Below are positions 518 through 51,224 of a stretch of DNA of 64,000 bases, piece after piece. The notes under the pieces are model-generated. The model was not told the DNA's origin, made no database searches, and worked only from the letters and a program-made list of their open reading frames with translations. Each line of letters opens with the position of its first letter. The stretch's first letter is position 1. This DNA comes from a virus (Duplodnaviria > Heunggongvirae > Uroviricota > Caudoviricetes), in the IMG/VR virus record IMGVR_UViG_3300044675_003084, positions 1,378-65,377 of that record; one strand, given 5' to 3'. Made by a program: the position numbers and the translations under genes.

Positions 518-3500
518 TTATCGTCCAAAGATATAACGAATACCTAATTGTGCACTCCATACATCAAATACTGATGAATTGTACTGATAAGTATCTCTAG
601 CTAAAATGGTAGAACCATCTGCTAATCTTTGAGTTGCTAATTTATAAACCGGTTCACCTGCTGCATTAGTAGATGAGTAGTTTAGAATTGTTGGAATAGT
701 TGCTCTTTGAGAAACACCCCACTCATTATTCAATAAGTTACCAAAGTTTAAGATATCAGCTCTAATTTGAATTGTATTCTTTTTACCTTTAACTTTTACA
801 TAAATGTCTTGTACTACTGATAAATCTAATCTATTCAACATAGGAATAAATGAACCATTTCTTTCAGCGTATTGACCTTTGCGAGAAGATAAGTACTCAT
901 CTTGTCCGATGTAAGAATCAAATGCTGCTTGTTGTTCAGCTTCAGTATAAGTTCTTGTACCTACTACCAATGGTGCGAATTTGATATCAGAACCTTTGTT
1001 TGGTACGAAGATTAATTCATTGTTAGAAATACGGTCTCCGTTCATATCACCACCAATTGTGTAAGAGAATGGGTTACCCTGATTTCCAACATAACCTAAT
1101 GTGAATGAAGTTGCTCCACCAAATCCTTTACCATATTCTAATCTATATCCTAACAAACCAACTAAACGATTTGGAGATAAGAAATCTGAATTAGAAAGAG
1201 ATAAATCATTATTACCATTTACACTTCTTGCACCTGTCCAACTACCACTAGCAATTGAACCTGCACTCATATAATCTATTGCGGTTGATGTAGTCCAAGC
1301 GAATGAACCGAATATACCTCTTTGGTAAGGATATTCCAACTTCAATGTTAATGAATTAAATAATGCATCTGATGTATTTGTTAATACAATTGCATTTGAA
1401 ACATTATCATTTACCCTAACACCATTATCGTTTCCTGCGAATTTAGCTCGTTGGTCAACTCCTACGAATTTACCAGTTGGAACTTCTAAGTTTGCACTAT
1501 AATAATGAACTGCGTTTAAATTTTGATTTACAATATATTCAGCAGTACCAATGAAACCAAATGGTAACTTTTGGTCAATTGCGATATTTGATTTCCAAAC
1601 TTGAGGGAATTTATAATTTACATCCGTAAATGCTAAATCAAATGTTGAAGGTAATGTTGGAGTTGAAGGAATAAAGTATTTGTTAGGGTCTGCAGTGAAA
1701 CCATATTTGGTTGCTGCTGCACCACTTGCATCAATATATCCTGTCAATACACCATTGTTACCCACTTGATTAGAGATAAACACATATGGAGGTCTGCCGG
1801 TAAAGATACCACTACCACCTCTTAATTGAGTCTTTCCATTACTGAATACATCGTGGTTAAATCCGAAACGAGGTTCGAATAAAGTTTGTGTTGATGGTAA
1901 TTTACCAGTATTAAATTTCTCTCCATTAGCAAATACCATTGCAGATACTGCTGGATTTTCTAACGCAGTTTGTTCGAATGAAATAACTGCTGCTCTTAAA
2001 CCAAAAGTGAACTTTAAGTTTTCAGTTGCTTGGAATTCATCTTGTGCATAAACATCCAATCTATCAGTTTTCAAAGTCTGCATTGGTTCAATTGCTCCCG
2101 GTAATGCCGAATAACGGAATTGGAAACGAGATGGAACTAATGTAGAAGGTGCACCACCATTTGCTAATGATTGATTAGCTGCGGTGTAGAAATCTGCTAA
2201 ACTATTGAAGATGTAAACACCATTAGATGCAGGGAAGAATAAGTTATTAGATTGATATTTCTCATAGTTGAAACCAAATGTCAAAGTGTGTTTATTTGCA
2301 TACTTTGTTAAGTTGTTTGTAATATGGAAAGTGTTATAATCTAACTTATTTCCTGGAGTGAAAGGGTCGAACCCTACCGATGTAAGAGTTGTTGCTCCTT
2401 CTTTAATATCAATCGTTGGGAACATTTGAGAACGATATGCTCTATCCTCAATTTGTTTATCATATCCAACAATTAAGTTGTTATGTAAAGTGTTTGATAA
2501 TTTAGAGTTCAATTCCAATACATAAGAACGAGTATTATCCATAATAATGTAACCACTATTTTGAAAACTCATTGCTAATGCTGATTGTGTTCTATTACCA
2601 AATCCTGCTGAAGTTGAGTTTGAAACGTTAATCTCTGCTTCAGAATCGTGGTGTACATAACGAGCCGTTAATTTATGTTTATCATTAATGTTCCAATCCA
2701 TACGAACCAAAAATTTGTTTGATTTGTTTGCGTTAGAATATCCTTCAAACGGGCCAGTTGTATAATTAAACTTATCTTGCATAAATTTAGATAAGTCCGA
2801 TAATTGTGTATAAGTTGGTCTACTGATTTGTGTACCCGTTGCAATTGGAGAACCAGTTGAAAACCATGTTGTACCCGGTTCAGTTCTTTCAATTGATTCG
2901 TAGTTACCAAAGATAAATAATTTGTTCTTAATGATTGGTGCACCTAAACGGAAACCTTGTACCTTCTCATCAAATTTAGATGCAGTTACTTTTGTTCCTC
3001 TAGCATTATCACCTACATATGTAGAACTATTATCTCTTTGTGTTTGATATACCGAACCTTCGATTTCATTTGTACCACTTCTTGTTACTGCGTTGATACC
3101 TGCACCGGTGAATCCACTTTGACGGATATCAAATGGGGCAATGTTAACTTGTAATTGCTCAATCGCATCTAAAGAGATTGCTGATGCTCCAGTTCTACCA
3201 CCTGCCTGTGCAGATGAGCCTAATCCGAATCCATTATTGAATTGAGAACCATCGATTGTAAAGTTATTCAAACGAGAATCTTGTGCTCCGAATGAGTTTC
3301 CGTTTCCGTTTGGATTGTACTTTGTAATACCATCAATTGTTCTTGCTCCCGTAATAGGAATATTTTGTAAATCTCTACGAGTAAATTGTTGAGATGCACC
3401 GGTTCTTTCTCTTGAAATAATATTATTTCTAGTAGAAAGTACAACAACCTCTTTTAAAATTTGATTTTCATCAATTAAAATAAAGTCTACATTTGATGTT

Positions 3501-3793
3501 ACACCTAATTGAGTGTTTACATCTTTCTCTTCACCTTTCTTAAATCCAATAAATGAAGCATGGATTGTGTATGGACCACCTACTCTTACTGCAGGTAATA
3601 CATAAACACCATTTTTGTTTGTAATCGAATGGTACTGAGTACCGGTTGGTGTGTGAGTAGCGTGAATTGCTGCACCTACTAACACTTCTTGCTTTTCATT
3701 CTTTACAACACCTGAAATAGTTGATGTGGTAACTTGACCAAATCCTACTAATGCAGATACTGAAAGGAGAAGCGATAAAATCACTTTTTTCAT
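518..3793 (-). CDS. TonB-dependent outer-membrane receptor-like protein (SusC/RagA-type), 1091 aa with signal peptide
   Basis: N-terminal signal peptide MKKVILSLLLSVSALVGFGQ. A carboxypeptidase-regulatory-like domain (ISGVVKNEKQEVLVGAAIHATHTPTGTQYHSITNKNGVYVL...) is followed by plug-like and long Gly/Asn/Tyr-rich beta-barrel sequence. The size is typical of Bacteroidetes TonB-dependent transporters. C-terminus is ...LGIRYIFGR. Confidence 0.6.
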   Translation of the reverse strand: MKKVILSLLLSVSALVGFGQVTTSTISGVVKNEKQEVLVGAAIHATHTPTGTQYHSITNKNGVYVLPAVRVGGPYTIHASFIGFKKGEEKDVNTQLGVTSNVDFILIDENQILKEVVVLSTRNNIISRERTGASQQFTRRDLQNIPITGARTIDGITKYNPNGNGNSFGAQDSRLNNFTIDGSQFNNGFGLGSSAQAGGRTGASAISLDAIEQLQVNIAPFDIRQSGFTGAGINAVTRSGTNEIEGSVYQTQRDNSSTYVGDNARGTKVTASKFDEKVQGFRLGAPIIKNKLFIFGNYESIERTEPGTTWFSTGSPIATGTQISRPTYTQLSDLSKFMQDKFNYTTGPFEGYSNANKSNKFLVRMDWNINDKHKLTARYVHHDSEAEINVSNSTSAGFGNRTQSALAMSFQNSGYIIMDNTRSYVLELNSKLSNTLHNNLIVGYDKQIEDRAYRSQMFPTIDIKEGATTLTSVGFDPFTPGNKLDYNTFHITNNLTKYANKHTLTFGFNYEKYQSNNLFFPASNGVYIFNSLADFYTAANQSLANGGAPSTLVPSRFQFRYSALPGAIEPMQTLKTDRLDVYAQDEFQATENLKFTFGLRAAVISFEQTALENPAVSAMVFANGEKFNTGKLPSTQTLFEPRFGFNHDVFSNGKTQLRGGSGIFTGRPPYVFISNQVGNNGVLTGYIDASGAAATKYGFTADPNKYFIPSTPTLPSTFDLAFTDVNYKFPQVWKSNIAIDQKLPFGFIGTAEYIVNQNLNAVHYYSANLEVPTGKFVGVDQRAKFAGNDNGVRVNDNVSNAIVLTNTSDALFNSLTLKLEYPYQRGIFGSFAWTTSTAIDYMSAGSIASGSWTGARSVNGNNDLSLSNSDFLSPNRLVGLLGYRLEYGKGFGGATSFTLGYVGNQGNPFSYTIGGDMNGDRISNNELIFVPNKGSDIKFAPLVVGTRTYTEAEQQAAFDSYIGQDEYLSSRKGQYAERNGSFIPMLNRLDLSVVQDIYVKVKGKKNTIQIRADILNFGNLLNNEWGVSQRATIPTILNYSSTNAAGEPVYKLATQRLADGSTILARDTYQYNSSVFDVWSAQLGIRYIFGR

Positions 3794-3930: not shown

Positions 3931-4614
3931 TTATTTATTATATACAACAAATGTTGTTATTGCATATCTACCAATTCCACCTATTACTTTATTGACTTGA
4001 TGTTCAACATTTTTACCATTTTCTTTTAATGATATAACTACCACATTACCAAATATTGGTAATATCTCTTCAGTATTATCTAATTTTAAAACACCACCAT
4101 TATTTATATCATAAGTTTCATTTAAATAAATCATAATAGCACAAACTCTATTTAAATTATTTCCGTCTTTATGATTTACTATTTGACAACCATAATCAAA
4201 AAATGTTATATCGTTAACGAGTGATTGTAACTTAATAGACTCATCTATTGAGAATATTTTTTTACTAATATCGTATTTAATTTTTTGTATAGTGTTTCCA
4301 AATGGTAAATTATGATATTCGGCACGATACCAATTTTGAAAAGGTTGACCCTTTATTAATTTTAACTTTGTTAACATTGCCTTTTGAGCATCTTCAAATG
4401 AAGGATATCCTACACTATTTTCGTTTATCTTTGATTCATCGGGGTTATATGAACTTCCATCCAATCTAATCCCCGTCATTAAATGTTTTAAATTATTAAT
4501 TTCATTACATTTAAGGGGCAATAATTCATTATAATACTCTTCATTAAAATCTTTAAGATTAAATTGAGTATATCCTTTTATTTCTATATCTGATTGAAGT
4601 TTGTTAAATTGCAT
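3931..4614 (-). CDS. 2OG-Fe(II) oxygenase superfamily protein (prolyl-hydroxylase-like fold)
   Basis: HxD motif (NHKDG), hydrophobic core strand (RVCAIMIYLN...GGVLKL), distal His (NVEHQVNKV) and 2OG-binding Arg (GRYAITTFV) occur in canonical order. Confidence 0.5.
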   Translation of the reverse strand: MQFNKLQSDIEIKGYTQFNLKDFNEEYYNELLPLKCNEINNLKHLMTGIRLDGSSYNPDESKINENSVGYPSFEDAQKAMLTKLKLIKGQPFQNWYRAEYHNLPFGNTIQKIKYDISKKIFSIDESIKLQSLVNDITFFDYGCQIVNHKDGNNLNRVCAIMIYLNETYDINNGGVLKLDNTEEILPIFGNVVVISLKENGKNVEHQVNKVIGGIGRYAITTFVVYNK

Positions 4615-5174: not shown

Positions 5175-6809
5175 TTATGGTTTATAAAATACAAAAATGG
5201 GTTCAAACTTATAAGCTTTACCATCGTGTTTAACTGCGTTCTTAATACCGGTTTTAGATGGGTCTAATCCTACCATTCGGGTCATTAACATCTTCAATCT
5301 ACCTTTATACTCACATCCCAATTCGGTTAGAATATCAATAGAATCTTGTTCCAATGCATAGTAGGTATCCTTACCAATTTTAATATCGGCAATATTCCAT
5401 AGAATGTATCTATCATTTTTAAGATACTCATAAATGGTAGTTAGGGTAGGACGTAAGAAGTTTTGTCTCCAATCCTCATACTCACCATATGCTTTGAATG
5501 ATTGATTCTCATCTTGTGAATATTGTTCTCTATTAAAATATGGGGGTGACGTGAATGCTAAATCCAATTTACCTGCATACTTTTGAAACTTAGGATTATG
5601 TTGAATCAACTCCGAACCATCTTGAAATAACTCGTAAGTGTTTGATTGTTTTTGAACCTCAAAGAATTTACCAAATGTTTCTGAATAATCATCTACACAA
5701 TTTTTGTTGTAGAAATCAGCAACATACTCATAACGAGAGATACCTAATTCCGGTATAAAGTTATCAGGGTTCGGGTCAGTTCCAATGTAATGGGTTTTCT
5801 TACGAGAACTCATTGCACCTAATATTCTGCCACCCCATCCACTTGATGAATCATAAATGTGTAGGGGGTCTGGTTGTTCAATATGTGAAGTGTAATGTTC
5901 GTATAACCACTTAGCGGTTAGTGCAGGAAAATTCACTGCAGGTTGACCACAACTTAAACGAAACACTTGTAATATCTTTGGAAAGATACCAATTGTTTTA
6001 TCGTACCAACGAATCAGATAGAAAAACTTTTTAACCGTCCCATCTTTTAAAGTGGTAGATGGTTCAATAGTTTTAATATTAGATAATTGAGTATGTGATA
6101 ACCATCCCTTATCCTTACATTCTTGTACTTGTTCAGCAGTTAGGTATAGATTACCAAATCCAATATATTGTTCATTGATAGTACCATAATTATCTAAGGT
6201 ATCCTCCTTTACTTTCGCAAGAACAATACCTATGTTTTCGTACTTACCAACGAACACTTTACCTTCATGTACTTTTTGTATAAATTCAATTCCAGTTTCA
6301 CCATCCCAAAATTCATTCTCATCTTTCTTATTCACAATAGAACGTGACCACGAATACATAGAATCTTTCTTAACCGCACGTTTCATTATATGAACGAAGG
6401 TATCTTCTAATTTCGGGTCTGAGAAATGGTCATAAATAGATAATCCACCTTCTGCTGATTTACCGATTGATATTTTGGTTTTCAACATAGTTGGAAAGAA
6501 TTGATTTACGGCTGATGCATCTTTATTGAAGTTTTGTAAAATACCCAATGAGTTATCATCTCCCGTCAAATCTTTTTGAAGGAAATCACAATCATTTGTT
6601 TTTAACTTTTTGAATGAATCGATTATATCATTCTTATCTTTTCCGATAACAGGAGGAACACCATCGGTATCCCATTGTTTAGTTACTTCTATGCGTAGTA
6701 ACTTTGCCCAACTAATAAACTCATCATCAGTCATTTCTAATAACCGATGATAAGTTGTATTGGATTGGAATTCAGAAAATTTAGACCTTTCGTAATAGTG
6801 TTTAGTCAT
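5175..6809 (-). CDS. DNA methyltransferase-like protein (N6A/N4C class, SPPY motif), 544 aa; paralog of 14870..16102
   Basis: Motif I-like 'YDSSSGWGGRILG' and motif IV 'FTSPPYFNREQY...', with 'ILWNIAD' downstream. The catalytic region is closely similar to the ORF at 14870..16102. Confidence 0.5.
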   Translation of the reverse strand: MTKHYYERSKFSEFQSNTTYHRLLEMTDDEFISWAKLLRIEVTKQWDTDGVPPVIGKDKNDIIDSFKKLKTNDCDFLQKDLTGDDNSLGILQNFNKDASAVNQFFPTMLKTKISIGKSAEGGLSIYDHFSDPKLEDTFVHIMKRAVKKDSMYSWSRSIVNKKDENEFWDGETGIEFIQKVHEGKVFVGKYENIGIVLAKVKEDTLDNYGTINEQYIGFGNLYLTAEQVQECKDKGWLSHTQLSNIKTIEPSTTLKDGTVKKFFYLIRWYDKTIGIFPKILQVFRLSCGQPAVNFPALTAKWLYEHYTSHIEQPDPLHIYDSSSGWGGRILGAMSSRKKTHYIGTDPNPDNFIPELGISRYEYVADFYNKNCVDDYSETFGKFFEVQKQSNTYELFQDGSELIQHNPKFQKYAGKLDLAFTSPPYFNREQYSQDENQSFKAYGEYEDWRQNFLRPTLTTIYEYLKNDRYILWNIADIKIGKDTYYALEQDSIDILTELGCEYKGRLKMLMTRMVGLDPSKTGIKNAVKHDGKAYKFEPIFVFYKP

Positions 6810-6812
6810 ATA

Positions 6813-7526
6813 TTAGTTAGCGATTTCCACTAAATAGTAATCGGATGTATAGGCATCCACTTCAAAATGAATATGAGATAACCCTTGTGATGAAATTTCT
6901 AAGATAGCATCTTTAGCTTCTTTGTTTGCAACTAAGATTTCTTTTAAGTAAGTTGCTGAGAATGAGATTGGGTTAATACTACCTTCACACTCACAATCCA
7001 CATCAATAGAAATTCTATTAGTGTTAATGTTTGAATGACCTAAGATAATTTGACACTTACCATCTTTTGCAACAAATGTGAAATTGTTCTCATCTGTCAA
7101 CGCCGATTTAGCACGGATGAACTTTGTAATAAAGTTTTCGTCTAACTTAATTTTAATGTTGAAAGTTGGTAATTGTTTCAAATCAGGTACATTTGGGATA
7201 ACCGAAAGGTCAGCCAACATATAATTGATTGAAGTTGAACCATCTTTAAACTTTAATGATACCGCTTTACCATCTACGTCAGAGATTTCAAAATCAATTG
7301 ATTCTCCTAATACTGATAACATTTTAGTCAACTTAGATGTATCATATACACCAAATGTTGTATCACTATGACCAAAATCTGTCATTGTTACTTTACCCAA
7401 TACTGATTTATCATCAGAGATGAATGCAGTTGTTAATGAGTTGTCTTTTGTTTCCCACTTTACAGATTCTACTAAACCTGCAAGATTGTACTTTTGTACG
7501 AAACGCCCTAATTTACCTTTTTCCAT
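6813..7526 (-). CDS. Putative sliding clamp (gp45-like processivity factor)
   Basis: 237 aa, comparable to the T4 gp45 size class. It lies immediately downstream of the family-B polymerase and near the clamp-loader gene. The assignment rests on context and size only. Confidence 0.4.
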   Translation of the reverse strand: MEKGKLGRFVQKYNLAGLVESVKWETKDNSLTTAFISDDKSVLGKVTMTDFGHSDTTFGVYDTSKLTKMLSVLGESIDFEISDVDGKAVSLKFKDGSTSINYMLADLSVIPNVPDLKQLPTFNIKIKLDENFITKFIRAKSALTDENNFTFVAKDGKCQIILGHSNINTNRISIDVDCECEGSINPISFSATYLKEILVANKEAKDAILEISSQGLSHIHFEVDAYTSDYYLVEIAN

Positions 7527-10131: not shown

Positions 10132-11757
10132 CTATTTTTCGTAAACTACTTTTGCTTGTTTATAACCATCCGGTATAAACAAATCATTTTTGTGAATTGT
10201 TTGTATTTTTTCAATACCATCTAACATATAACGACCTTCTGATAATAGAGTTTTTAACTTCTTAGTTATATTATCGCTATGACCACCATGTACCCACGTT
10301 ATAGTTTTAAATGTATGTGGCATTCCGATTCTTGCCAACAATTCGGTAAGATGTTCATCATCCATTTGTTTGTATTGCCATTCTTGTAAATGTACATCAC
10401 CAAATGTTAAATCTAATTTAAATTGATGACTATTATCATCATTTTGTGTTATCTTATTAGTATCAAACGAAGTATCATTAAGTAACTTTTGTGTATTAAT
10501 CAATGTTCCAGCATGAGAAATGTTTGATGAATCTTGTAAGATTTTTTTATAATTCTCCACTTCAGCATCTTCATCTTTCTTTAACTTTACGTTTGAGGTA
10601 TCACATAGTAAAGTGTGAAATCTAGCAAGTTTCTTAACCAATTCTCTTAATCCAATTTCAAACGTACTATTTCTAAATTTTACTTTTAATCTTGCGAATG
10701 GTGTTTGAGATTCTGGACTTAATACAAATACCCACTTTCTATTATTAAACTCTGCTGGCCACATAGATACATTTGGCCATAAGTAAATCATACATATAAA
10801 TGTACCATCTGATGATACCACATCTACTGTTGGTTTATCTAATTCAGATAGGTGTATTGGGTGAACATTATCTTCACCACCGATTTGTCTATATAAGGTT
10901 TGTAACTTATCGGTTTGTGATTTTCTAATTGTTTCATAAGAAAATAAACTACCGGTATAAGTTTCACCATCAATATTCATTATGTGCAAATCATCACCTT
11001 CCTCTGATACTACTTGCAACATATCAGTATAGTGTCTTAATAAATTTCCACAATTAGATGGAAACACATATGGTTTAGTAGGTGTAAGTGTAGATTCCCC
11101 ATTCTCAACTAATTCGTATTTAAATTGTTTACCAACTTTATATTGATACCTCATTCTTGAGAAATTAACCAATCCTCTATAATCAATTTTAAATGGCAAT
11201 CCTCTGAATAGTTTGGATTTATTATACCAACCATTGTAACTTTTACCTAACCCATGTCTTTCAACCCATTCTTCAGCCGATACTTCAAATACATCGACGG
11301 TAATTCCTTTAAGTGCAATAGTAAATCGTGTCGGAGTGATTGTTTTAATATCTTCATCCATAATGTAGTTATACTTAGCTACTCTATATTCATTATCTGG
11401 AGTTACATACCCTACCTCTTCAAAATAGGAAAAATTATGTGGAGCAATTGAACCACCCAATTGGGCTTGACCAACTGATTCAAATTTATTTCTGATTATC
11501 TTACCAAGCGTTTTACCAATGTATTTTGTTTTAAAATCGTCATCGGTACATCTACTACTATTATTGGCACGTACAACCGAATAATCACCATCTGAATCTT
11601 TGGTTATCCTATTATAGATAGAAGTTCCACCATATCCACTTGAATTATCATCCCACTCACTTAGAAAGTTTTGACCTGTAATTCCATGTTCGTTAGGTTG
11701 ACCGGCTACATAGAATGTCCCATCATCTGAGAACTTATGTGTGTACAATTTTTTCAT
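10132..11757 (-). CDS. Hypothetical protein (541 aa), first gene of a tightly packed nucleotide-metabolism/modification-like cassette
   Basis: Complete ORF with its own upstream promoter-like motif. No confidently recognisable catalytic motifs. Confidence 0.3.
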   Translation of the reverse strand: MKKLYTHKFSDDGTFYVAGQPNEHGITGQNFLSEWDDNSSGYGGTSIYNRITKDSDGDYSVVRANNSSRCTDDDFKTKYIGKTLGKIIRNKFESVGQAQLGGSIAPHNFSYFEEVGYVTPDNEYRVAKYNYIMDEDIKTITPTRFTIALKGITVDVFEVSAEEWVERHGLGKSYNGWYNKSKLFRGLPFKIDYRGLVNFSRMRYQYKVGKQFKYELVENGESTLTPTKPYVFPSNCGNLLRHYTDMLQVVSEEGDDLHIMNIDGETYTGSLFSYETIRKSQTDKLQTLYRQIGGEDNVHPIHLSELDKPTVDVVSSDGTFICMIYLWPNVSMWPAEFNNRKWVFVLSPESQTPFARLKVKFRNSTFEIGLRELVKKLARFHTLLCDTSNVKLKKDEDAEVENYKKILQDSSNISHAGTLINTQKLLNDTSFDTNKITQNDDNSHQFKLDLTFGDVHLQEWQYKQMDDEHLTELLARIGMPHTFKTITWVHGGHSDNITKKLKTLLSEGRYMLDGIEKIQTIHKNDLFIPDGYKQAKVVYEK

Positions 11758-11776
11758 CTTTTATGTTTTAAATTTA

Positions 11777-11814
11777 TAAAGCTAATATACAACTTTTATT
11801 TGATATATCCAAAT
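11777..11814 (-). promoter_or_regulatory. Class-1 variant promoter-like motif upstream of the 541-aa gene
   Basis: taaagctaatatacaacttttatttgatatatccaaat. A variant with 'gctaatatac' replacing 'gatacgaa'. Confidence 0.35.
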
Positions 11815-11822
11815 ATTTTACC

Positions 11823-12662
11823 CTAAAATTTGTAAATTCCCCCAATATTCCAGAATAGGATTGTACCCTCTATTTCATCTATGTTTTCCTCTAACCATTT
11901 CCATTGTTTTATATCCCAAAATTGGTTACAAGGAAACGGGGCTTCGTAACCATCTAATCTATTCTCAAATAGATACTCTGATTTTCGTATGTTTAATGGA
12001 ATCGGAATTCCACTCTTTTTAAGTGTTTTATTGATTGAACTAACCGATGATACACACGTTGTCCAAATCTTTCTTTTAACTTGTGGGAAAAACTCTTTAA
12101 GTTCCTCTCTATAATATCCTTTAGCAAGACCGGATAGGGTTACACCACTACCGGATGATACTACTAAATTATCAAAATGTGCGTATGGTTGAATTCTATC
12201 TGCAAGATAATCCTTATAGAAATCGTGGTCAAAAGCGTAAGGTAACATTTGCCATCCTTTTTCTCTTGCATCTTTCTTTAAGGAATTATACATAATTTGC
12301 ATCATATTAGGTCTAATAGGATATAGATTTGCTTTGGGATACATTTCCTTAATCAACCCCAAATACTCCTGTGATATCTTTTTAGAATCAGGGTGGGCTG
12401 CATAAAATTCAATATCCAATTGTTCACATATTGCTGCAAGTACCCATGCTGTCCAGCTTCCATCTACTGAAAGGTGAACCAATGGTTTACTTTTATCAAC
12501 ATACTTTTTAACTAATTCAAATACTGCTGCTATCTTACCCCAAGGCGGTAGTATTGTACCATCACCCATAAGGTCATCTCTTTTTACCCAAACTTCTCTA
12601 CCCTTAATATGGTAAAGTTCTAATGGGGTTTCTTCATTTAATCCTTTTAGTTTTAAATCCAT
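11823..12662 (-). CDS. Hypothetical enzyme, possibly PLP-dependent fold-type-II-like (ACC-deaminase/D-Cys desulfhydrase-like signature)
   Basis: 'VWVKRDDLMGDG...PPWGKIAAV' resembles the 'KRDDL...GGNK' signature of fold-type-II PLP enzymes. Overlaps the upstream AsnB-like gene by 10 nt, suggesting translational coupling. Assignment is tentative. Confidence 0.3.
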   Translation of the reverse strand: MDLKLKGLNEETPLELYHIKGREVWVKRDDLMGDGTILPPWGKIAAVFELVKKYVDKSKPLVHLSVDGSWTAWVLAAICEQLDIEFYAAHPDSKKISQEYLGLIKEMYPKANLYPIRPNMMQIMYNSLKKDAREKGWQMLPYAFDHDFYKDYLADRIQPYAHFDNLVVSSGSGVTLSGLAKGYYREELKEFFPQVKRKIWTTCVSSVSSINKTLKKSGIPIPLNIRKSEYLFENRLDGYEAPFPCNQFWDIKQWKWLEENIDEIEGTILFWNIGGIYKF

Positions 12663-14158
12663 TGGTAAATTCCTCCTGAGTTTGACGTCAATTCTCCTTT
12701 CATTTTTTTATGAGAGAACCCATGTATTTTTTCAAAGTTATCACCAATCACATGAATCATATTTTTTCTTTTCTTAAAATTAATAGATTCATCTTTTAAA
12801 ATGATTTCTTCGATGTATTGTTTAAAATTCGTTCCTTTTTGAAATGCCCTTTTTTCCTGGTCTAAAATATCATCAGGTAGTTTACCTCTGAATGCGTTAG
12901 CAAGTGGTAGTTTCCATTGTCCTCCTTTACATAAGAATTCATCAGTTAAGTTGGTAGTATAGTTTAGAAATTCAGTATCAAAGAATGGACATCTTAATTC
13001 AATTGTTCCATAATTCATAAAGATAGTATTACCTCTTAATAAGTTACCATAGTATTGTTTTTCAAATAACTTTTTACGAACATCACTCCAATCTGGTTTC
13101 TTACTGAACATACGGAATGTACCATACGAACCATATGATTCATCACTACCCTCACCACTAAATGCTACTTTGATTCCATCCTTTGCCATTTGTTCTGCAA
13201 TAAAGGATTGTAAGATACCCACTTCCATTTGAACGGTCGATGGGTATTCGATTACTCTAATTGAATCTAAAAATCTTTGTTTAATTATTTCCTCATCTTT
13301 AGGTACGAATACTTCAACTAATTCTATTCCCAAATATTCTGCACATACTCTTGCCTTTTGTAAATCTTTTGAGGTTTCATCAAATGCAATTGTGTATGCT
13401 TTTAGGTTGGGTATACGTTGTGATAGTAGGTAGGTAATAATTGCAGAATCGATACCACCACTTAGTGATGTAGCAATTGGTACATCTGATAATAATCTTT
13501 TATCTACTGCAGTTTCTAATAACTTAAATGTAGTTTCACCAACTTCTTCATGTGATGCCGGTATTGTTAGTTCGTTTGAAAATTGAAAATAGTAATCCTT
13601 ATGAACTACGATGGTATCGGTATCCAAATTAATTACTACTAATGAATTCTTAGGTACAAATTTAATATCTGAACTCTTTACTTGTGTTGTAATGGATTTG
13701 ATTTCACTAGCAACGATATAGTTGTTTGTATTGTGAATATAAAGGGGCAATTTACCCACCCAATCCCTCGATAGTATCAACTTATCATTATCATATATAA
13801 TGAATGAGAACATACCCTCTAATCTCTTTAATTCACCTTCTTTATAAAGATATAAAATGATTTCTGAATCTGAGTTGGATTTAAAATGATATCCTCTACC
13901 TTCGTATTCTTTACGCAATTGAGGATAGTTCCAAATCTCACCATTTACTACCAATTCAACACCATCCCACTCCATTGGTTGATTACCCAATGGTGATGTA
14001 TCATTGATTGATAATCGATTATGTCCTAATATAATTAGTTTATCTCTATATTGGAATTCTTTAATACCACGATTATCTCTGCCACGATGCTCAATTGCTT
14101 CGAGCATTACATTCACATCATCTCTTTTATAACCAATCGTTGCTACAATTCCACACAT
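12653..14158 (-). CDS. Asparagine synthetase B-like class II glutamine amidotransferase
   Basis: N-terminal nucleophile 'MCGIV', glutaminase-domain sequence, and PP-loop 'SLSGGIDSAII' of the AsnB synthetase domain. 501 aa. Confidence 0.8.
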   Translation of the reverse strand: MCGIVATIGYKRDDVNVMLEAIEHRGRDNRGIKEFQYRDKLIILGHNRLSINDTSPLGNQPMEWDGVELVVNGEIWNYPQLRKEYEGRGYHFKSNSDSEIILYLYKEGELKRLEGMFSFIIYDNDKLILSRDWVGKLPLYIHNTNNYIVASEIKSITTQVKSSDIKFVPKNSLVVINLDTDTIVVHKDYYFQFSNELTIPASHEEVGETTFKLLETAVDKRLLSDVPIATSLSGGIDSAIITYLLSQRIPNLKAYTIAFDETSKDLQKARVCAEYLGIELVEVFVPKDEEIIKQRFLDSIRVIEYPSTVQMEVGILQSFIAEQMAKDGIKVAFSGEGSDESYGSYGTFRMFSKKPDWSDVRKKLFEKQYYGNLLRGNTIFMNYGTIELRCPFFDTEFLNYTTNLTDEFLCKGGQWKLPLANAFRGKLPDDILDQEKRAFQKGTNFKQYIEEIILKDESINFKKRKNMIHVIGDNFEKIHGFSHKKMKGELTSNSGGIYQWI

Positions 14159-14159
14159 A

Positions 14160-14858
14160 TTATTTATTTAATACTTCTAATAACTTATGAGTTTTTTTTG
14201 TTTCATCATTCATTTTACCGATATGACAAGAACACGCTAAAACTGATACTTTCTCCAACTCCATCCCACTTTCTCTAGCTAAGAACTTACCCATCTCAAC
14301 TAATGCTGTGTAATCTGCATAACCTGATTTGGATACTCTATTTGAACGAATAATTGATGTCAGGTAGATTTTACCATTACGAGGTTTAATATCAATACCC
14401 AACATACAAGGTTGCGAATATGGGTTTCTAGCATCTCTGCTCGGGTCAAAGATAATCAATTCACATCTCTTAACTGCTTTACCAGTTTTTAGAATTTTGA
14501 TTACGTTTTCCACTTGATTAAATGTTCCTCCCCATGCAATCATTCTACCCCAATATGAATCATGCCAGTGGTCTTTAATGAATTTATATTCTAATCCCTC
14601 TTCTGCTACAAAGAATGGGTTATCTGATACTTTTGGTTGTGGTTCTAAGAAAGTTACGGTCTTTGCGTAATCAATTCTATCATCACCCATAATTTCTCTA
14701 AAATGTGGGTCGAACCAATCATCAGATTTAAATTCGGTGATTTCTGTCATTACGTTTAACTCTTCGGTTAAATCGCCTACCTTTACGCCATTGGCGATAA
14801 GGTGTTTAGATACCTTTACCCATGCATCTCCCGGAGATGTTGCTTCTATAACTGTCAT
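14160..14858 (-). CDS. Thymidylate-synthase-fold enzyme (ThyA / dNMP hydroxymethylase family)
   Basis: Aligns with ThyA core: 'RCELIIFDP' (R..IIVSAWN), catalytic Cys in 'SQPCMLGID' (PCH), 'IIRSNRVSKSGYADYTALV' ([20 protein letters not shown]) and 'SCHIG' (GDTH). It is 232 aa, shorter than ThyA, like phage dCMP/dUMP hydroxymethylases. Substrate specificity cannot be assigned from sequence alone. Confidence 0.6.
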   Translation of the reverse strand: MTVIEATSPGDAWVKVSKHLIANGVKVGDLTEELNVMTEITEFKSDDWFDPHFREIMGDDRIDYAKTVTFLEPQPKVSDNPFFVAEEGLEYKFIKDHWHDSYWGRMIAWGGTFNQVENVIKILKTGKAVKRCELIIFDPSRDARNPYSQPCMLGIDIKPRNGKIYLTSIIRSNRVSKSGYADYTALVEMGKFLARESGMELEKVSVLACSCHIGKMNDETKKTHKLLEVLNK

Positions 14859-14869
14859 ATTATTTTATT

Positions 14870-16102
14870 TTATACTTTACGAAATACCCAAACTGGTTCA
14901 CAAAATGTTTTACCAGCATTTTCAATTGCTTTTTGCTTTTCTTCTTCAGAATATCTATCCTCATCTCCTTCAATCATTGCACCCGCACCAATTGAACCCG
15001 GCCGTTTAGCCATTTCCATACCTAAACATCCTTGATATTCTGCACCTTCTAATGTAGAAATAAAATCGTTCATTGGGTTAGTGATTTCCTGTTGACCTTT
15101 ACCATCGCCCTTTGAGGATGCATATACATCTGCGATGTTAACTGCTAGATACCCACCCTTACGGATAGTAGGCCATACTTTTTCAATCGTTGCGTGTAAG
15201 AATAATTTATTCCATGCATCAATATTTTTATATCGAATCCAACTTTGAGTATCATCATATGAGTATCTCTCTACGTTGAAATATGGTGGCGAACTGAATA
15301 CAATATCAAAGTAATCGGTATACTCACTATAATCCATATCCTCTGCGGGAGAACAATGAAAGGTTGCCCTTTTATCAGTTTCAAAAAAACCATTATTCTT
15401 TTTATAGAATTCGGCTTGTTTTTCGTATATTGGATGATTTTCTTTACGCGGGTCAATACCTACATAATGTTCGCCATATTCTGATGCGAAGAATCCACAT
15501 AATCTATCACCCCAACCAGCAGAAATATCTAATACATTCTTTGCTTGAACGAAATCATAAAGTGCCTTTGCTACGTTTGGTTTGAACTGAGAACAAATAT
15601 ACTTTCTTAAAGATAGACAAGTTCTTAGGGTATTTTTACTAACCTCATCAAATTTTAGGGTATACATTCCACCGATTAGTGAAAACATAAAATCAGGGTT
15701 ATTCCAAGTACGGAATGGGCCAGGTGATACTGTCCCATCGACACTCCATCTATTTGCTTGTTGAAAATGATTTGATGCACCATTACCGGTATTCAACCTT
15801 CTTACATATTGTTGTTTACCTTGAAATCCTAGTGGATAACGGGTTTCGGATGCCTTACGAGGAAACCACTCGCCTTCGGTTAGAAGTTCGTGATAACGAG
15901 TTCCTTTTAATTTAAGATACTCTTTTCTTGCATCCTCTTCGGAAATATCTGCATATGGTAAGTCATATGTCATACATACTTTGGCAAGAGATTCCTTAAC
16001 ATCTTCTCTTTGGTATGTTTTTTTAATGTAAGACCACTCTTCCTTATCGATATAAAGATATGGTGTCATACCATAAAATTTATCAAAATACTCTATGTAC
16101 AT
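14870..16102 (-). CDS. DNA methyltransferase-like protein (N6A/N4C class, SPPY motif), 410 aa
   Basis: Motif I 'LDISAGWGDRLCGF' lies about 70 aa before motif IV 'VFSSPPYFNVERY', followed by 'LAVNIAD'. The N-terminal ~190 aa form an extra domain. Confidence 0.55.
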   Translation of the reverse strand: MYIEYFDKFYGMTPYLYIDKEEWSYIKKTYQREDVKESLAKVCMTYDLPYADISEEDARKEYLKLKGTRYHELLTEGEWFPRKASETRYPLGFQGKQQYVRRLNTGNGASNHFQQANRWSVDGTVSPGPFRTWNNPDFMFSLIGGMYTLKFDEVSKNTLRTCLSLRKYICSQFKPNVAKALYDFVQAKNVLDISAGWGDRLCGFFASEYGEHYVGIDPRKENHPIYEKQAEFYKKNNGFFETDKRATFHCSPAEDMDYSEYTDYFDIVFSSPPYFNVERYSYDDTQSWIRYKNIDAWNKLFLHATIEKVWPTIRKGGYLAVNIADVYASSKGDGKGQQEITNPMNDFISTLEGAEYQGCLGMEMAKRPGSIGAGAMIEGDEDRYSEEEKQKAIENAGKTFCEPVWVFRKV

Positions 16103-16126: not shown

Positions 16127-16159
16127 TATATTTTATCAAAGATACGAAAAATATTCCGT
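16127..16159 (-). promoter_or_regulatory. Class-1 promoter-like motif upstream of the methyltransferase/TS/AsnB cassette
   Basis: caaagatacgaaaaatattccgtatttccaaat. Confidence 0.45.
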
Positions 16160-16168
16160 ATTTCCAAA

Positions 16169-24610: not shown

Positions 24611-25084
24611 TTATTTAGCCCATTTACCATTAGAAACTATTTGTGCAATAATTCCGTATACTGATAGGTCTTGAAAAGTATCTTCAATTGATTCACCAAC
24701 TGAATCCTCTTTACTTAGAACTACCAATTGTTTTAATCTTTGGATTTTATCGTTCATTCTAAACCATAATCCCGTAAGTGATAATTTCTTATCCTCAGCA
24801 GTTTCTAATTTAGTACCAACCGAAATATTATTTGGGCCGTAGTTTGATTGTTTTAGACAAAACAATTCGTATTGAGTAAACATAATTCGTTTAAACTCAT
24901 CAGTCATTTCCGGATATTCTTTTTCAACCTGTTCTATGATTTGAGGATTATCATATTTGATAAATGCAACTTCATCATCCTTTGTCTCCAATTTAGGAGC
25001 GATGTTCATTTGAAGTTGATTCTTTGCTTGTTGACTTACAATCTTCGGACCACTATGTGGTTGTGGGGGTGTGTTTTTTGCCAT
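24611..25084 (-). CDS. Hypothetical protein
   Basis: Complete ORF with a class-1 promoter motif upstream. Confidence 0.3.
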   Translation of the reverse strand: MAKNTPPQPHSGPKIVSQQAKNQLQMNIAPKLETKDDEVAFIKYDNPQIIEQVEKEYPEMTDEFKRIMFTQYELFCLKQSNYGPNNISVGTKLETAEDKKLSLTGLWFRMNDKIQRLKQLVVLSKEDSVGESIEDTFQDLSVYGIIAQIVSNGKWAK

Positions 25085-29380: not shown

Positions 29381-30046
29381 CTATTTTTGTTTGAATTTAA
29401 ATCCTGTTAGTTTTTCAATATCCGAAACCTCTACTTTGTTATTATTTATACCATCCGGTTTAGATAAGTCGTTCTCAAATAAAAACGCAAACCATTCCTT
29501 ATTTCTAACTACATAAAAAACTTTCCAACATTGTGTCGGTACGGAAATCTTTCCTATCTTTTTTAACTCGCCCACATTTCCTGCCCAGATATGAACTGAA
29601 TCTGATATTAGAGCAACATCTCTTGTTAGGGTTTCTAAGGATTTCCAGTCTCCCGCATTCAATCTATGGTATTGTGCTACCATATTTGAATAATAGAAAC
29701 TTTCATCTTGTATCGCCGGAGTTTGACATTGATTTGATTTTGCCGGCATTAGATGACCTCTATCAAATCCACTTCCTACATAATCCGTTCCAATATCGGT
29801 TTCGTTTGGTAAAAGGGGGTCGGGTTTAAAATTATCTTTACGTGGAATCGGATTTGGACAACCAATTTTTGCTTTGGTTTCCCACCATTCTACTAAGACA
29901 GGATATCTTTTTGATTTACTAAAGTGTGTTGTGTAATTTGTGTGTTTTAAAACCACTACATCTTGTGCGAATGTTACAATTGTAACGAATGATAGCATCA
30001 ACGTCATTAACGTAATCCCCACTATTGTCCCTAAATTTTTTCTCAT
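29381..30046 (-). CDS. Secreted DNA/RNA non-specific endonuclease (Serratia/EndoG family)
   Basis: Signal peptide/TM 'IVGITLMTLMLSFVTIVTFAQ' and the DRGH active-site motif 'GFDRGHLMPA' characteristic of beta-beta-alpha-Me non-specific nucleases. Confidence 0.75.
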   Translation of the reverse strand: MRKNLGTIVGITLMTLMLSFVTIVTFAQDVVVLKHTNYTTHFSKSKRYPVLVEWWETKAKIGCPNPIPRKDNFKPDPLLPNETDIGTDYVGSGFDRGHLMPAKSNQCQTPAIQDESFYYSNMVAQYHRLNAGDWKSLETLTRDVALISDSVHIWAGNVGELKKIGKISVPTQCWKVFYVVRNKEWFAFLFENDLSKPDGINNNKVEVSDIEKLTGFKFKQK

Positions 30047-33795: not shown

Positions 33796-34176
33796 TTAGG
33801 TTCTAAAATGAGCTCCGTTTGATGCCCAACCCTTTGAGTGATTACTAAATGGTTTTGCTGCTTGAGCAAATCTACCCAAACTTTGAACTGAATTAGAGTG
33901 TGAACCGATTGAATCCCATCCACTTTCCCACTTATCAGGTATCTTACCATCTTTGAGTATCAATAACCCAATTGCGTTAAAATACTCCTTAATGTCAGTA
34001 TATTTTACTTTAAAAAAGGTATTCAGACGATTCTCTTTATCTACGTTAATAAATAATAGTGAACGAGCCTTAACTCTACATACTTTAAGATTACGGGTCT
34101 TAATCTTCCCATTAAGGGAAACCGTCACATCTAAGAACTGACCGGAGGGAAGATTTTCAAAATTTGAAGAATTCAT
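33796..34176 (-). CDS. Hypothetical protein
   Basis: Complete ORF with a class-1 promoter motif upstream at 34207-34244. Confidence 0.25.
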   Translation of the reverse strand: MNSSNFENLPSGQFLDVTVSLNGKIKTRNLKVCRVKARSLLFINVDKENRLNTFFKVKYTDIKEYFNAIGLLILKDGKIPDKWESGWDSIGSHSNSVQSLGRFAQAAKPFSNHSKGWASNGAHFRT

Positions 34177-35016: not shown

Positions 35017-35793
35017 TTATTCTCCCCAATGTTTTTGTCTTAATTCGTACATATCGATAGCCTCTCTTTTCATCTGATTTCCGGTATGAAAATATGCACC
35101 TTCTTTAAGATACCCACCTAAGAAATTTCTTCTCATTCTCGTGGTATCTCCGTTTGGTTCACTACCATGTACTACGTGTGAGTGTAAAAGGGCAACTTGT
35201 CCTTTTTTAAGATATCCCTCAACCTTACGGAAATCGTGGCCTTCTGGCATTACACAACTCTTACCTCTTTCACTTCTCCAGTTATCAGTATTTGTTGCTT
35301 TTCTCTCTTCGTTATCTTCAATTGGTAATGTAGGTAATCGGTGAGAACCTTCGTAGTTCCATACTGCCCCATTTTCAGGGTCGTGATTATCCAAAGCCAA
35401 CGCAGTATTGATAATTTCATTATGACCACAACCAGTATAGAATGCGTTTTGATGCATATCTCTACCCAATTCACCTTTTGGTTTGTAATAACCCCAAGTT
35501 TGTAAACCCACTACACTCCCTTCCATTAGGAATTCTGCTGCTTCCATAATTTTTGGATGTGAAAATAATTTAGCAATTTTTTCTGAATCTCTATGTGGAT
35601 ACATAATAGGTTCAAACTCTTGCCATTTTCCTGGTTCTCTTTCATTACGTTCTACACGTAAACGGTCTAATTCTTCGTTGATTTCATCTACTTCAGTTTC
35701 AGTTAATAATTCCAAAACTGTGAAGCCTCGGTATCTCCAATCAAATGACATTTGTTGAAGTTCTTCCGTTGTAAGGTGTTTGTATTTTTGCAT
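35017..35793 (-). CDS. Phytanoyl-CoA dioxygenase (PhyH)-like 2OG-Fe(II) oxygenase
   Basis: C-terminal 'LLHSHVVHGSEPNGDTTRMRR' matches the PhyH 'HGSxxNxSxxxR' signature. A candidate upstream metal-binding motif is near 'DMHQN'/'GHNE'. A TATAAATAT box lies upstream and a terminator downstream. Confidence 0.5.
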   Translation of the reverse strand: MQKYKHLTTEELQQMSFDWRYRGFTVLELLTETEVDEINEELDRLRVERNEREPGKWQEFEPIMYPHRDSEKIAKLFSHPKIMEAAEFLMEGSVVGLQTWGYYKPKGELGRDMHQNAFYTGCGHNEIINTALALDNHDPENGAVWNYEGSHRLPTLPIEDNEERKATNTDNWRSERGKSCVMPEGHDFRKVEGYLKKGQVALLHSHVVHGSEPNGDTTRMRRNFLGGYLKEGAYFHTGNQMKREAIDMYELRQKHWGE

Positions 35794-50225: not shown

Positions 50226-51224
50226 CTATTTGTTATAAATATCTAATAATGAATCAATCCACTTATTCTTATCCGTATATTTTTCAATCATATAAGTTTT
50301 TATAGTATTGAACCAATATAATTTTTCAGAATAAGGTAATGTAGTAATCTTTGTATAAATATCAAAAAATTCAGTTTTAGACGATACTCGATATGGATAA
50401 TTTAAATCTTTACACCATGTGGTATGTAATATTGGTAATTTACCCCTATCAACTGCTTCAAATATTGAATATCCAAAGGGTTCTGATATAAATGCGGAAT
50501 GTGATATTCCCCAATCCATATCATAAAAAGTATCTTTAAACTCCGAATCATAATGATATAATTTTGATTTTGAAACATCTACCTTTACGCCATTTTTCCA
50601 AAGTAAATTAAATTCTTGTGAATTAGTAAAAATAAGACTTGGTATTTTATCTAAATAGTGTGGATTTTTTCTACCTTCACTCCTTGCTGCGAATCCTAAC
50701 TTATTAGATTTGGATAGTGGTAGATTCTTTTTAAATTCGTAAAAATTTGGTATATTGGTGTTTTTATAAAGTATTTCGTATAATCCTACCCATATATTAT
50801 TCTCACACCAATCAGTAACCTCTTGTTCCCATTCTGAACTCATATACGGATGATGTCCTATTGGTAAATCACTTCCAAATTGAGATTTTAGAATATGGTC
50901 TACTGAATTGTGTAATATATTTGAATGAATTTTATCTTTATTGTCTACAATCGGTTTCATTGGAGTATAATGTCCATGTAGAATATTAATTCTTCTAGCA
51001 CCTTTACATAGTTCTTCAAATTTTTGAATATCTTCACCATGCCAATAAGTTTCTATTGGAAATTGGTAATCTTCGTGTCCTTTGGGTTTGTTTCTATGAA
51101 TAAGGAGAATTGGTTTAACATCTAATTTAGGTGCTATTAATTCCATCCAAAGATTTACCCAAATATCAGAACCTGCGTTGACCCACGGCCCTCCACCTGT
51201 GGTATAATAAACATCATAAACCAT
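50226..51224 (-). CDS. GT-B fold glycosyltransferase-like protein
   Basis: 'SEPFGYSIFEAVDRGKLPIL' matches the GT4/GT1 'E(x)FG...EAmaxGxPvi' C-terminal-domain motif. 332 aa. Confidence 0.45.
   Translation of the reverse strand: MVYDVYYTTGGGPWVNAGSDIWVNLWMELIAPKLDVKPILLIHRNKPKGHEDYQFPIETYWHGEDIQKFEELCKGARRINILHGHYTPMKPIVDNKDKIHSNILHNSVDHILKSQFGSDLPIGHHPYMSSEWEQEVTDWCENNIWVGLYEILYKNTNIPNFYEFKKNLPLSKSNKLGFAARSEGRKNPHYLDKIPSLIFTNSQEFNLLWKNGVKVDVSKSKLYHYDSEFKDTFYDMDWGISHSAFISEPFGYSIFEAVDRGKLPILHTTWCKDLNYPYRVSSKTEFFDIYTKITTLPYSEKLYWFNTIKTYMIEKYTDKNKWIDSLLDIYNK

Follow-up and report, generated by a model that had tools for sequence, protein, structure and literature searches.

A conserved phage gene cassette encoding a thymidylate-synthase-fold enzyme, an AsnB-type amidoligase and a PLP enzyme: a candidate module for cytosine hypermodification

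Do a few tightly packed genes in the replication region of a large, uncultured tailed phage encode a pathway for the decoration of a DNA base? The question is raised by a locus in the IMG/VR virus record IMGVR_UViG_3300044675_003084 (Caudoviricetes), analyzed over a stretch of 64,000 nucleotides (positions 1,378 to 65,377 of the record), hereafter the window. A preliminary description of this DNA, made without database searches, had proposed that five adjoining genes form a candidate nucleotide or DNA hypermodification module. Four of them are here assigned to a conserved cassette, which probably directs the conversion of cytosine to a hypermodified base. The five genes, as given by the list of open reading frames (ORFs), are as follows, in the order of transcription.

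14870-16102, minus strand: MT410, S-adenosylmethionine (SAM)-dependent methyltransferase-fold protein, 410 aa
14160-14858, minus strand: TS232, thymidylate synthase (TS)-fold protein, 232 aa
12653-14158, minus strand: AsnB501, asparagine synthetase-like protein, 501 aa
11823-12662, minus strand: PLP279, predicted pyridoxal phosphate (PLP) enzyme, 279 aa
10132-11757, minus strand: u541, protein of 541 aa

The positions of the five genes and the close packing of the first four agree with those first reported. AsnB501 and PLP279 share 10 nt (12653-12662), a single nucleotide lies between the stop of TS232 and the start of AsnB501 (14160/14158), and 11 nt separate MT410 from TS232. No convincing terminator was found inside the four-gene block, where 1 weak site was detected versus 3.1 expected from shuffles. 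The motifs QPCM, MCGI...SGGIDS, KRDDL...GK and SPPY, on which the early assignments had been based, are all present in the cassette proteins. Genes encoding thioredoxin, NrdA/NrdB and a DnaB-like helicase lie at one flank of the cassette; a family-B polymerase, the sliding clamp and a paralog of MT410 (MT544) are encoded at the other.

The function of the cassette is best approached from PLP279 and AsnB501. PLP279 matches the Pfam family PALP weakly, but phrog_7093 of PHROGs over its full length (4.8e-24). Searching GenBank phages by tblastn retrieved 62 records, all from YuA/M6-like Pseudomonas, Bordetella and related phages. PLP279 and M6 gp52 are 26% identical over 277 aa (BLASTP); Lys43 is placed opposite Lys36 of gp52, and both proteins have the distinctive C-terminal motif APFPCN..WKWL..FWNIG. 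By these similarities PLP279 is a putative fold-type II PLP enzyme (1-aminocyclopropane-1-carboxylate [ACC] deaminase-like) of the M6 gp52 family, with Lys43 as the predicted Schiff-base lysine. For M6 gp52 and its ViI counterpart gp226, both PLP decarboxylases, action on amino acids attached to uracil in DNA has been demonstrated experimentally (PMC8989533). Neither a 5-hydroxymethyldeoxyuridine (5-hmdU) DNA kinase nor an aGPT-Pplase was found among the ~40 ORFs of the window scanned with Pfam and PHROGs, the window being part of the genome.

AsnB501 carries both domains of asparagine synthetase B, as denoted by Pfam matches to PF00733 (1.7e-41) and GATase_7 (1.4e-30) and by alignment with E. 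coli AsnB (1ct9) across both (8e-39). The N-terminal class II glutaminase is intact. The nucleophile is Cys at residue 2 (mature Cys1), the equivalents of Arg49, Asn74 and Asp98 are kept in the segments HNRLSI, VNGEIWN and SDSE, and the MCGI, PP-loop SGGIDS and SGEGSDE motifs are conserved. The protein scores 281 bits with TIGR01536, above the cut-off of 267, and fails the AsnB equivalog model NF006949 (252 bits, cut-off 499). Thr-Val-Gln-Met is found where E. coli AsnB has Thr-Thr-Ile-Arg, in the aspartate-activation motif (Thr322/Thr323/Arg325), of which Arg325 is needed for the formation of beta-aspartyl-AMP; Asp384 is changed to Asn. By model and motif tests, therefore, AsnB501 is predicted to be an intact glutamine-dependent amidoligase of AsnB type, and not a bona fide asparagine synthetase B. 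A deazaguanine pathway was considered and rejected, the match of AsnB501 to QueC being due to PP-loop similarity only (E 0.006).

AMP-forming ligases of the asparagine synthetase family, some with a glutaminase domain, occur in clusters around the cytosine C5-carboxymethyltransferase CmoX; SpCmoY, the founding ligase from Synechococcus phage S-B43, joins glycine to 5-carboxymethylcytosine in DNA (PMC12783734). The core of AsnB501 is 25% identical to SpCmoY over 129 aa (pairwise E 6e-7). The only long relative of AsnB501 in GenBank phages, gp124 of Streptomyces phage TurkishDelight (31.5% identity over 90%), is encoded between two methyltransferases and adjoins two ParB-like genes, a layout typical of CmoX clusters. 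The connection is closer in sister loci, where AsnB is replaced by a 308-aa PP-loop-only protein, 23% identical to SpCmoY over 252 aa (pairwise E 2e-11). Only 4 GenBank phage records match the 308-aa protein, including S-B43 SpCmoY and an equivalent in a Staphylococcus phage, and both of these loci, when examined, proved to be methyltransferase-ligase-cytosine methyltransferase trios of the CmoA-CmoY-CmoX type. Homologs of CmoA and of the C5-methyltransferase CmoX were found neither in the cassette nor elsewhere in the window. That an AsnB-type enzyme had no published role in hypermodification, as stated in the preliminary description, is outdated, because CmoY, described in 2025 in a cytosine pathway, is an asparagine synthetase homolog that amidates a carboxylated cytosine in DNA.

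The homologies of PLP279 with gp52 and of the ligase with CmoY thus tie two of the four core proteins to characterized enzymes, which act on pyrimidine side chains in DNA. They support the view that the cassette is a nucleotide or DNA hypermodification module aimed at a pyrimidine, as originally suggested.

The composition of the cassette was followed in 49 IMG/VR loci with TS232 relatives and in 80 more obtained by a metagenome scan; additional contexts came from look-ups of distant relatives and from scanning a single genome of each species. Loci are designated by L numbers where they have to be told apart. The genes after TS were counted in the 97 loci with at least 2.6 kb of sequence downstream of it.

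AsnB and PLP: 75 loci of 97
PP-loop-only protein and PLP: 13 loci of 97
PP-loop-only protein and B12-type radical SAM: 3 loci of 97
Radical SAM only downstream: 4 loci of 97, the PP-loop gene lying just upstream of TS in 3
AsnB and radical SAM: 1 locus of 97
Neither: 1 locus of 97

A PLP or B12 radical-SAM gene thus follows TS in 96/97 loci, and AsnB or the PP-loop protein is encoded downstream in 92/97. The pattern holds from 100% down to 34% TS identity. An MT410- or MT544-like gene is found within 7.6 kb in all well-flanked loci (41/41), and within 15 nt in 13 of these. In contrast, u541 resides in 5/49 IMG/VR relatives only, in a slot of variable content between PLP279 and the DNA polymerase. 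As u541 is rare and its slot variable, while the neighbors of TS are kept, the conserved core is made by four parts: the methyltransferase-fold protein, the TS-fold protein, an ATP-dependent amidoligase, and a PLP or a radical-SAM enzyme. The four genes had been described as one cassette, and the related loci support a conserved functional unit.

The cassette is not restricted to one type of genome. It resides in T4-like phages with a family-B polymerase, in the PolA phage L051, in L056 and L059, and in assemblies of the Ignavibacteria/Kapaibacterium type; an integrated copy was found on a 3.28-Mb Kapaibacterium-like contig, adjoining an excisionase-like gene. The order of the parts is methyltransferase, TS, AsnB (54% identical to AsnB501) and radical SAM in L056, and methyltransferase, TS, PLP and PP-loop in L059. 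The radical-SAM enzyme of the relatives is of the B12-binding type and has no BLAST similarity to the M6 isomerase gp53. On the PolA-type contig L051, a TS232-family domain is fused to a radical-SAM domain in a protein of 676 aa (P0124, L051:7088-9118); the radical-SAM domain is akin to the B12-binding type of L056, and the genes on either side encode a PP-loop protein and an ATP-grasp-like protein. In all, the cassette is present in well over 100 environmental contigs, freshwater and marine ones included. Megablast of the cassette against GenBank phages retrieved nothing, and no cassette is found near the polymerase of Microcystis phage Mel-JY01, the closest cultured relative by polymerase (51%).

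Some loci carry additional ORFs. A 390-aa ORF between MT410 and TS (L006:1016-2188, L007, L009) has a P-loop ATPase motif and weak, sub-threshold GNAT matches (8e-5), and may put an acetyl group on an amine of the modification, in the manner of PaMx11 gp48. In the relatives closest to the window (L004:10701-11123, L044, L045, L002; TS identity 98-100%), TS and AsnB are separated by one or more small ORFs (80-140 aa). In the distant cassette of L056, an inserted IS605 OrfB/TnpB-type gene (L056:6766-7944) separates the methyltransferase-like gene from TS, and inteins mark a RecA-like gene of the same contig. A full-length GroEL-like chaperonin (544 aa, from sequence) is encoded near the polymerase in L006 (9864-11498), L011, L046 and L048.

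Which base is modified, and by what initial chemistry, depends on TS232. The protein matches PF00303 weakly (E 7e-4, 19.2 bits, under the gathering threshold of 24.3). The best NCBIfam model is TIGR03283, the short methanogen-type TS (3.4e-17), the score of 62.6 bits being below the cut-off of 174.6. The structure predicted by AlphaFold2 (mean predicted local distance difference test score 93.6) has the TS fold, and Foldseek found 396 PDB matches at E <= 0.001, the best 50 listed being all TS-family enzymes. Top matches are the dCMP hydroxylase AfhB of phage HY126 (9iqu; 217 aa; 1.4e-11; template modelling [TM] scores 0.67/0.71), MilA and 9iqc. A flavin monooxygenase of TS fold is among the best matches, and ordinary ThyA structures rank lower. 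Identity to the solved structures is 9-19% in the Foldseek alignments, and a phmmer search of the PDB retrieved the CMP hydroxymethylase MilA only.

TS232 was aligned with E. coli ThyA, T4 gp42 and RB69 gp48; residues are numbered below as in ThyA, unless stated. The catalytic Cys (Cys151 in TS232, Cys146 in ThyA), set in the QPCM motif, is kept, and is near-invariant (>=90%) across 28 family members. Arg166-Ser167 correspond to Arg171-Ser172 of TS232, of which Arg171 is invariant in the same set. The position of Asn177 is occupied by Asp (Asp182 of TS232), invariant in the 12 closest family members. The position of Asp169, a residue kept in ThyA, gp42 and MilA, is occupied by Arg (Arg174) in TS232 and by Ala in relatives. 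An acidic residue is missing at 143, where TS232 has Ser (Ser148) and relatives have Arg or Gly. The loop bearing the Arg21 equivalent is deleted, and the folate-contacting segment of ThyA, in which Leu172 and Phe176 line the folate site, is replaced by an invariant SK(S/A)GYAD. Whether residue 169 is Arg or Ala was tried as a tracker of the type of cassette, and rejected on comparison of the sequences of relatives.

Asp at position 177 marks the use of dCMP (PMC13326640, PMC8670742); an acidic residue at 143 marks hydroxymethylases, and Asn169 marks 5-hydroxy-dCMP synthases (PMC13326640). Of these three signatures TS232 has the first, and neither acidic 143 nor Asn169. Since only the Asp177 signature is present, TS232 is classified as a predicted cytosine-type TS-fold enzyme which matches none of the described subclasses, and is not assigned to a co-substrate class; its co-substrate pocket appears to be neither of the classical folate type nor of the known flavin type. 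The protein is not a canonical ThyA, as Asp is found at position 177 and Asp169 is missing, and the refutation envisaged in the preliminary description, a canonical ThyA, therefore fails. The claim therein that TS232 is a typical dUMP/dCMP hydroxymethylase is not supported: residue 143 is Ser, residue 169 is Arg or Ala, and a hydroxymethylase is not established, because Asp169, Asn169 and acidic 143 are all missing.

TS232 could nevertheless be an ordinary folate-dependent dCMP/dUMP hydroxymethylase like T4 gp42, the other proteins tailoring 5-hydroxymethylcytosine after replication. The TS fold, the catalytic Cys and Asp at 177, the similar size of TS232 and gp42, and the retrieval of MilA as the sole PDB sequence match would all fit, and the characterized relatives of PLP279 work on derivatives of 5-hydroxymethyluracil. 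This is unlikely, however, in view of Arg/Ala at the position where ThyA, gp42 and MilA have Asp169, of Ser/Arg/Gly instead of Asp/Glu at 143, and of the replacement of the folate-site residues Leu172 and Phe176 by the invariant SK(S/A)GYA. Moreover, neither a base kinase nor a transferase of the aGPT-Pplase type, which would activate the hydroxymethyl group, is encoded by the window ORFs scanned.

MT410 features a class I SAM-dependent methyltransferase fold, with motif I VLDISAGWGDR and motif IV SPPY (FSSPPYF), invariant in the family; the N-terminal ~185 aa have no assigned fold family. Both MT410 (17.2 bits) and its paralog MT544 (26.4 bits, 7.9e-6) score under the gathering threshold (26.7) of N6_N4_Mtase (PF01555). 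The top structural matches of MT410 are O-methyltransferases and RNA methyltransferases, and not DNA amino-methyltransferases; nearest folds include CmoB and family-3 O-methyltransferases. No specific similarity to CmoA was found. MT544, which had been recognized as a paralog from the start, shares the SPPY domain (28% identity over 244 aa, E 9e-23) and has a longer N-terminal region. It adjoins the sliding-clamp gene, a position conserved in relatives, and MT544-like genes precede TS in L051, at a distance of at most 2 genes, and in L065-L067, where they are its direct upstream neighbors.

TS232 might instead be a flavin-dependent dCMP 5-hydroxylase, as AfhB and RB69 gp48 are. MT410 would then alkylate the 5-hydroxyl, a SAM derivative donating either a carboxymethyl or a 3-amino-3-carboxypropyl group, by analogy with the tRNA conversion of 5-hydroxyuridine (ho5U) to uridine 5-oxyacetic acid (cmo5U), and AsnB501 and PLP279 would finish the side chain. 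AfhB is the best structural match of TS232, and the flavin monooxygenase has the same fold; the short length is similar; MT410 is near to CmoB and to family-3 O-methyltransferases, the group of the ho5U methylase TrmR; and such a route would supply the carboxylate required by a CmoY-like ligase. We regard it as doubtful all the same. The change of Asp169 to Asn, which is reported to be diagnostic for 5-hydroxy-dCMP synthases, is absent, the residue being Arg/Ala, and the Foldseek scores of AfhB and MilA are almost equal. The matches of MT410 are generic, with no specific similarity to CmoA, and SPPY is typical of amino-group methyltransferases rather than of O-alkyl transferases. The signatures of TS232 thus support cleanly neither the 5-hydroxymethyl nor the 5-hydroxy/O-alkylation route.

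The reading that we favor, with a probability of about 0.6, is that the cassette is a modular pathway which would convert cytosine to a hypermodified base whose side chain, probably attached at C5, bears an amide and/or an amine, shielding phage DNA from host nucleases. An amide- or amine-bearing cytosine appears most likely because the two best-anchored enzymes resemble decorators of DNA bases, and because the set is conserved and closely packed. From the folds, motifs, homologies and linkage described above, we infer substrates, order of the steps, level of action (nucleotide or DNA) and product as follows. Through its Cys151 thiol, TS232 would activate a cytosine nucleotide (most likely dCMP) at C6, so that a C5 group would be installed before replication. 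MT410, often encoded directly ahead of TS, would extend or alkylate this group with SAM or a SAM derivative. AsnB501 would adenylate a carboxylate of the side chain and, drawing ammonia from glutamine, turn it into a carboxamide; in sister phages the CmoY-like enzyme, which has no glutaminase, would presumably use another amine. PLP279 would bind the primary amine of a tethered amino-acid moiety as a Schiff base, and probably decarboxylate or otherwise tailor it, as gp52 does on DNA; in other relatives a B12-type radical-SAM enzyme would act in its place.

Several points weigh against this scheme. AsnB needs a carboxylate and a decarboxylase removes one, and a single alpha-carboxylate cannot serve both; the scheme therefore demands a side chain with two groups, another role for PLP279, or mixed products. 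The missing Asp169 and acidic 143 and the deletion of the Arg21 loop make the co-substrate of TS232, and even the use of a free 5'-monophosphate, uncertain. Structure searches with MT410 do not separate candidate substrates. MT410-like proteins are about 10 times as abundant as TS232-like ones (2876 versus 228 matches), hence the co-occurrence of the two may in part reflect shared ancestry. The related loci are not independent, many being near-identical, and some are the same contig in two collections. Finally, dCTPase, dNMP kinase, 5-hmdU DNA kinase, aGPT-Pplase and CmoA are all missing among the ~40 window ORFs scanned, in a genome of ~170-290 kb of which the window is a part.

A 157-aa protein with the DUF1599 domain (PF07659, "nucleotide modification associated domain 1", 5.2e-6) is encoded at 24611-25084 (minus strand). 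It was tried as a dCTPase-like partner and set aside, having no PDB relative; the closest homolog among GenBank phages (55% identity) is in Mel-JY01, which has no cassette near its polymerase.

A more specific version of the favored reading is put forward tentatively. TS232 may belong to a new catalytic class of the TS fold, using neither folate nor flavin and binding an anionic, possibly SAM-derived co-substrate at the invariant Lys177/Tyr180 motif (TS232 numbering). Together with MT410 it would add a carboxyl- or amino-acid-bearing side chain at C5, which AsnB501 and PLP279 would turn into a novel amide/amine base. Such a base would be widespread among T4-like Bacteroidota phages, both freshwater and marine.

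That the cassette yields a modified nucleoside or nucleotide in free form, for example an inhibitor of the peptidyl-nucleoside kind or an anti-defence molecule, instead of a DNA base is rather improbable. AsnB-like, PLP, radical-SAM, ATP-grasp and methyltransferase enzymes, all encountered across the loci, are the typical tailoring set of nucleoside antibiotic pathways. MilA, the closest sequence relative of TS232 with a structure, starts the pathway of a cytosine nucleoside antibiotic, and neither dCTPase nor dNMP kinase was found in the window. The characterized relatives of PLP279 and of the ligase, however, work on DNA, the cassette always resides in the replication module of lytic-type phages, and in the window it has no companion genes for glycosyl or peptide formation. 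That the cassette genes are unrelated auxiliary neighbors (a dTMP-making thymidylate synthase, an asparagine synthetase, an ACC-deaminase-like enzyme and a DNA methyltransferase) is very improbable: TS232 relatives are labeled "thymidylate synthase" by the Joint Genome Institute (JGI), AsnB501 passes the TIGR01536 cut-off and MT410-like genes are common outside the cassette, but Asp at 177 and the lost Asp169 speak against dTMP synthesis, AsnB501 fails the equivalog model and has Met in place of Arg325, and parts are swapped position for position (AsnB for CmoY-like, PLP for radical SAM), the order being kept down to 34% TS identity.

The remaining features of the region, including the promoter-like elements, are as follows.

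5175-6809, minus strand: MT544, 544-aa paralog of MT410
16137..16168, minus strand: promoter-like element upstream of MT410 (TTTG at 16168-16165, 20 nt, TATCTTTG at 16144-16137)
11777..11813, minus strand: variant promoter-like element before u541 (TTTG at 11813-11810 ... TAGCTTTA at 11784-11777)

Both elements can be read in the sequence, as had been noted: a single promoter ahead of the four genes, and a variant ahead of the 541-aa gene. The element recurrent in the window is TTTGGAAAT-N-TTCGTATCTTTG (TTTG ... TAnnTTTG); a second class has TATATTAGCTTT(G/A). The TTTG...TAnnTTTG element also precedes at least 5 other genes of the window, including those ending at 7526, 25084, 27840 and 31340, and variant elements precede the genes ending at 11757, 34176 and 34887, the variant at 34176 (TATATTAGCTTTG) being similar to that of u541. 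The element of the cassette corresponds to the -33/-7 pattern of Bacteroidota housekeeping promoters. The window has a G+C content of 33%. A 1091-aa protein encoded at 518-3793 (minus strand) features CarboxypepD_reg and an outer-membrane beta-barrel (PF25183, 1.5e-55); it resembles a receptor of the TonB-dependent/SusC type, which is unusual cargo for a phage, and hints at a Bacteroidota host. G+C content, beta-barrel protein and promoter pattern together suggest that the host is probably a member of the Bacteroidota.

u541 was dropped as a member of the module, into which it had been placed at first. It has no matches in Pfam, PHROGs and NCBIfam, is dissimilar to other ~500-aa ORFs found in the same slot, and lies outside the conserved core, in a slot which is hypervariable. 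After the PLP gene other loci, such as L006 (5371-6861), L008 (5579-7195) and L030 (13053-14242), carry a homolog of a GmrSD_N+HNH nuclease, a GHKL ATPase, a dUTPase along with a SAM lyase, or other unrelated ORFs. The slot looks like a hypervariable island of defence and counter-defence genes.

Other genes of the window had been regarded as possible contributors. The supposed GT-B glycosyltransferase at 50226-51224 (minus strand) has zero matches in Pfam, NCBIfam and PHROGs, and the assignment is not supported; the gene lies among tail-fibre-like genes. The two 2-oxoglutarate oxygenases exist, as 2OG-FeII_Oxy_3 (1.2e-8) and PhyH (3.2e-16) proteins encoded at 3931-4614 and 35017-35793 (both minus strand), but nothing connects them with the cassette. 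At 29381-30046 (minus strand) the window encodes a DNA/RNA non-specific endonuclease (PF01223, 2.7e-36); a phage with protected DNA could use such an enzyme for the degradation of host DNA.

The cassette is real, conserved and widespread, and is probably a variant of phage pyrimidine hypermodification, of which no description was found in the literature searched. Published cytosine pathways start from hydroxymethylation of the gp42 type, from hydroxylation of the flavin type, or from C5-methyltransferase homologs. In the cassette a TS-fold enzyme that falls outside the active-site signatures described so far is associated with two others, a CmoY-like amidoligase and a PLP enzyme of M6 type. 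Hypermodifications of phage DNA shape the efficacy of restriction, CRISPR and type IV defences, and are a source of enzymes for the chemistry of DNA labeling and sequencing. If the favored reading is correct, the cassette would produce a new base, probably through a new TS-fold reaction, and modules for ligation and tailoring would have been exchanged between thymine and cytosine pathways.

Compared with known systems, TS232 is like T4 gp42 (which makes 5-hydroxymethyl-dCMP), RB69 gp48 and HY126 AfhB (5-hydroxy-dCMP) and MilA (5-hydroxymethyl-CMP) in fold, Cys, Arg166/Ser167, Asp177, short length and location beside replication genes. It differs from all four in having Arg/Ala at 169, a non-acidic 143, no Arg21 loop, and SK(S/A)GYAD in place of the folate segment. 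AsnB501 shares with E. coli AsnB both domains (8e-39), the Cys nucleophile, Arg49/Asn74/Asp98, SGGxDS and SGEGSDE, but fails the equivalog model, has Val, Met and Asn for Thr323, Arg325 and Asp384, respectively, and can be swapped with a CmoY-like protein in the cassette.

Thymidine hypermodification in M6 and ViI involves a 5-hmdU DNA kinase, the amino-acid:DNA transferase aGPT-Pplase2, the radical-SAM isomerase gp53 and the PLP decarboxylase gp52/gp226. The cassette resembles it in having a full-length gp52 homolog (PLP279), in the predicted supply of the modified pyrimidine by a TS-fold enzyme, in the presumed amino-acid-like sculpting of the side chain, and in the use of a radical-SAM enzyme, which stands in for the PLP enzyme in related loci. 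In contrast to M6 and ViI, the specificity residue points to cytosine and not uracil, neither base kinase nor aGPT-Pplase was found in the window, and the radical-SAM enzymes of the relatives are B12-binding proteins unlike gp53 by BLAST. The AsnB-type amidoligase and the SPPY methyltransferase-fold protein, core components here, are not found in M6 or ViI. With the CmoA-CmoX-CmoY system of Synechococcus phage S-B43, which makes a glycine amide of 5-carboxymethylcytosine (PMC12783734), the cassette has in common an ATP-dependent ligase of the asparagine synthetase family, with or without glutaminase, and a class I SAM-fold protein as part of the set, and the best phage relative of AsnB501 is in a CmoX-like cluster. 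It differs from that system in that no C5-DNA-methyltransferase homolog is present, the Cys/C6 chemistry being presumably provided by the TS-fold enzyme, MT410 is not CmoA-like, and a PLP or radical-SAM enzyme forms a further, constant component.

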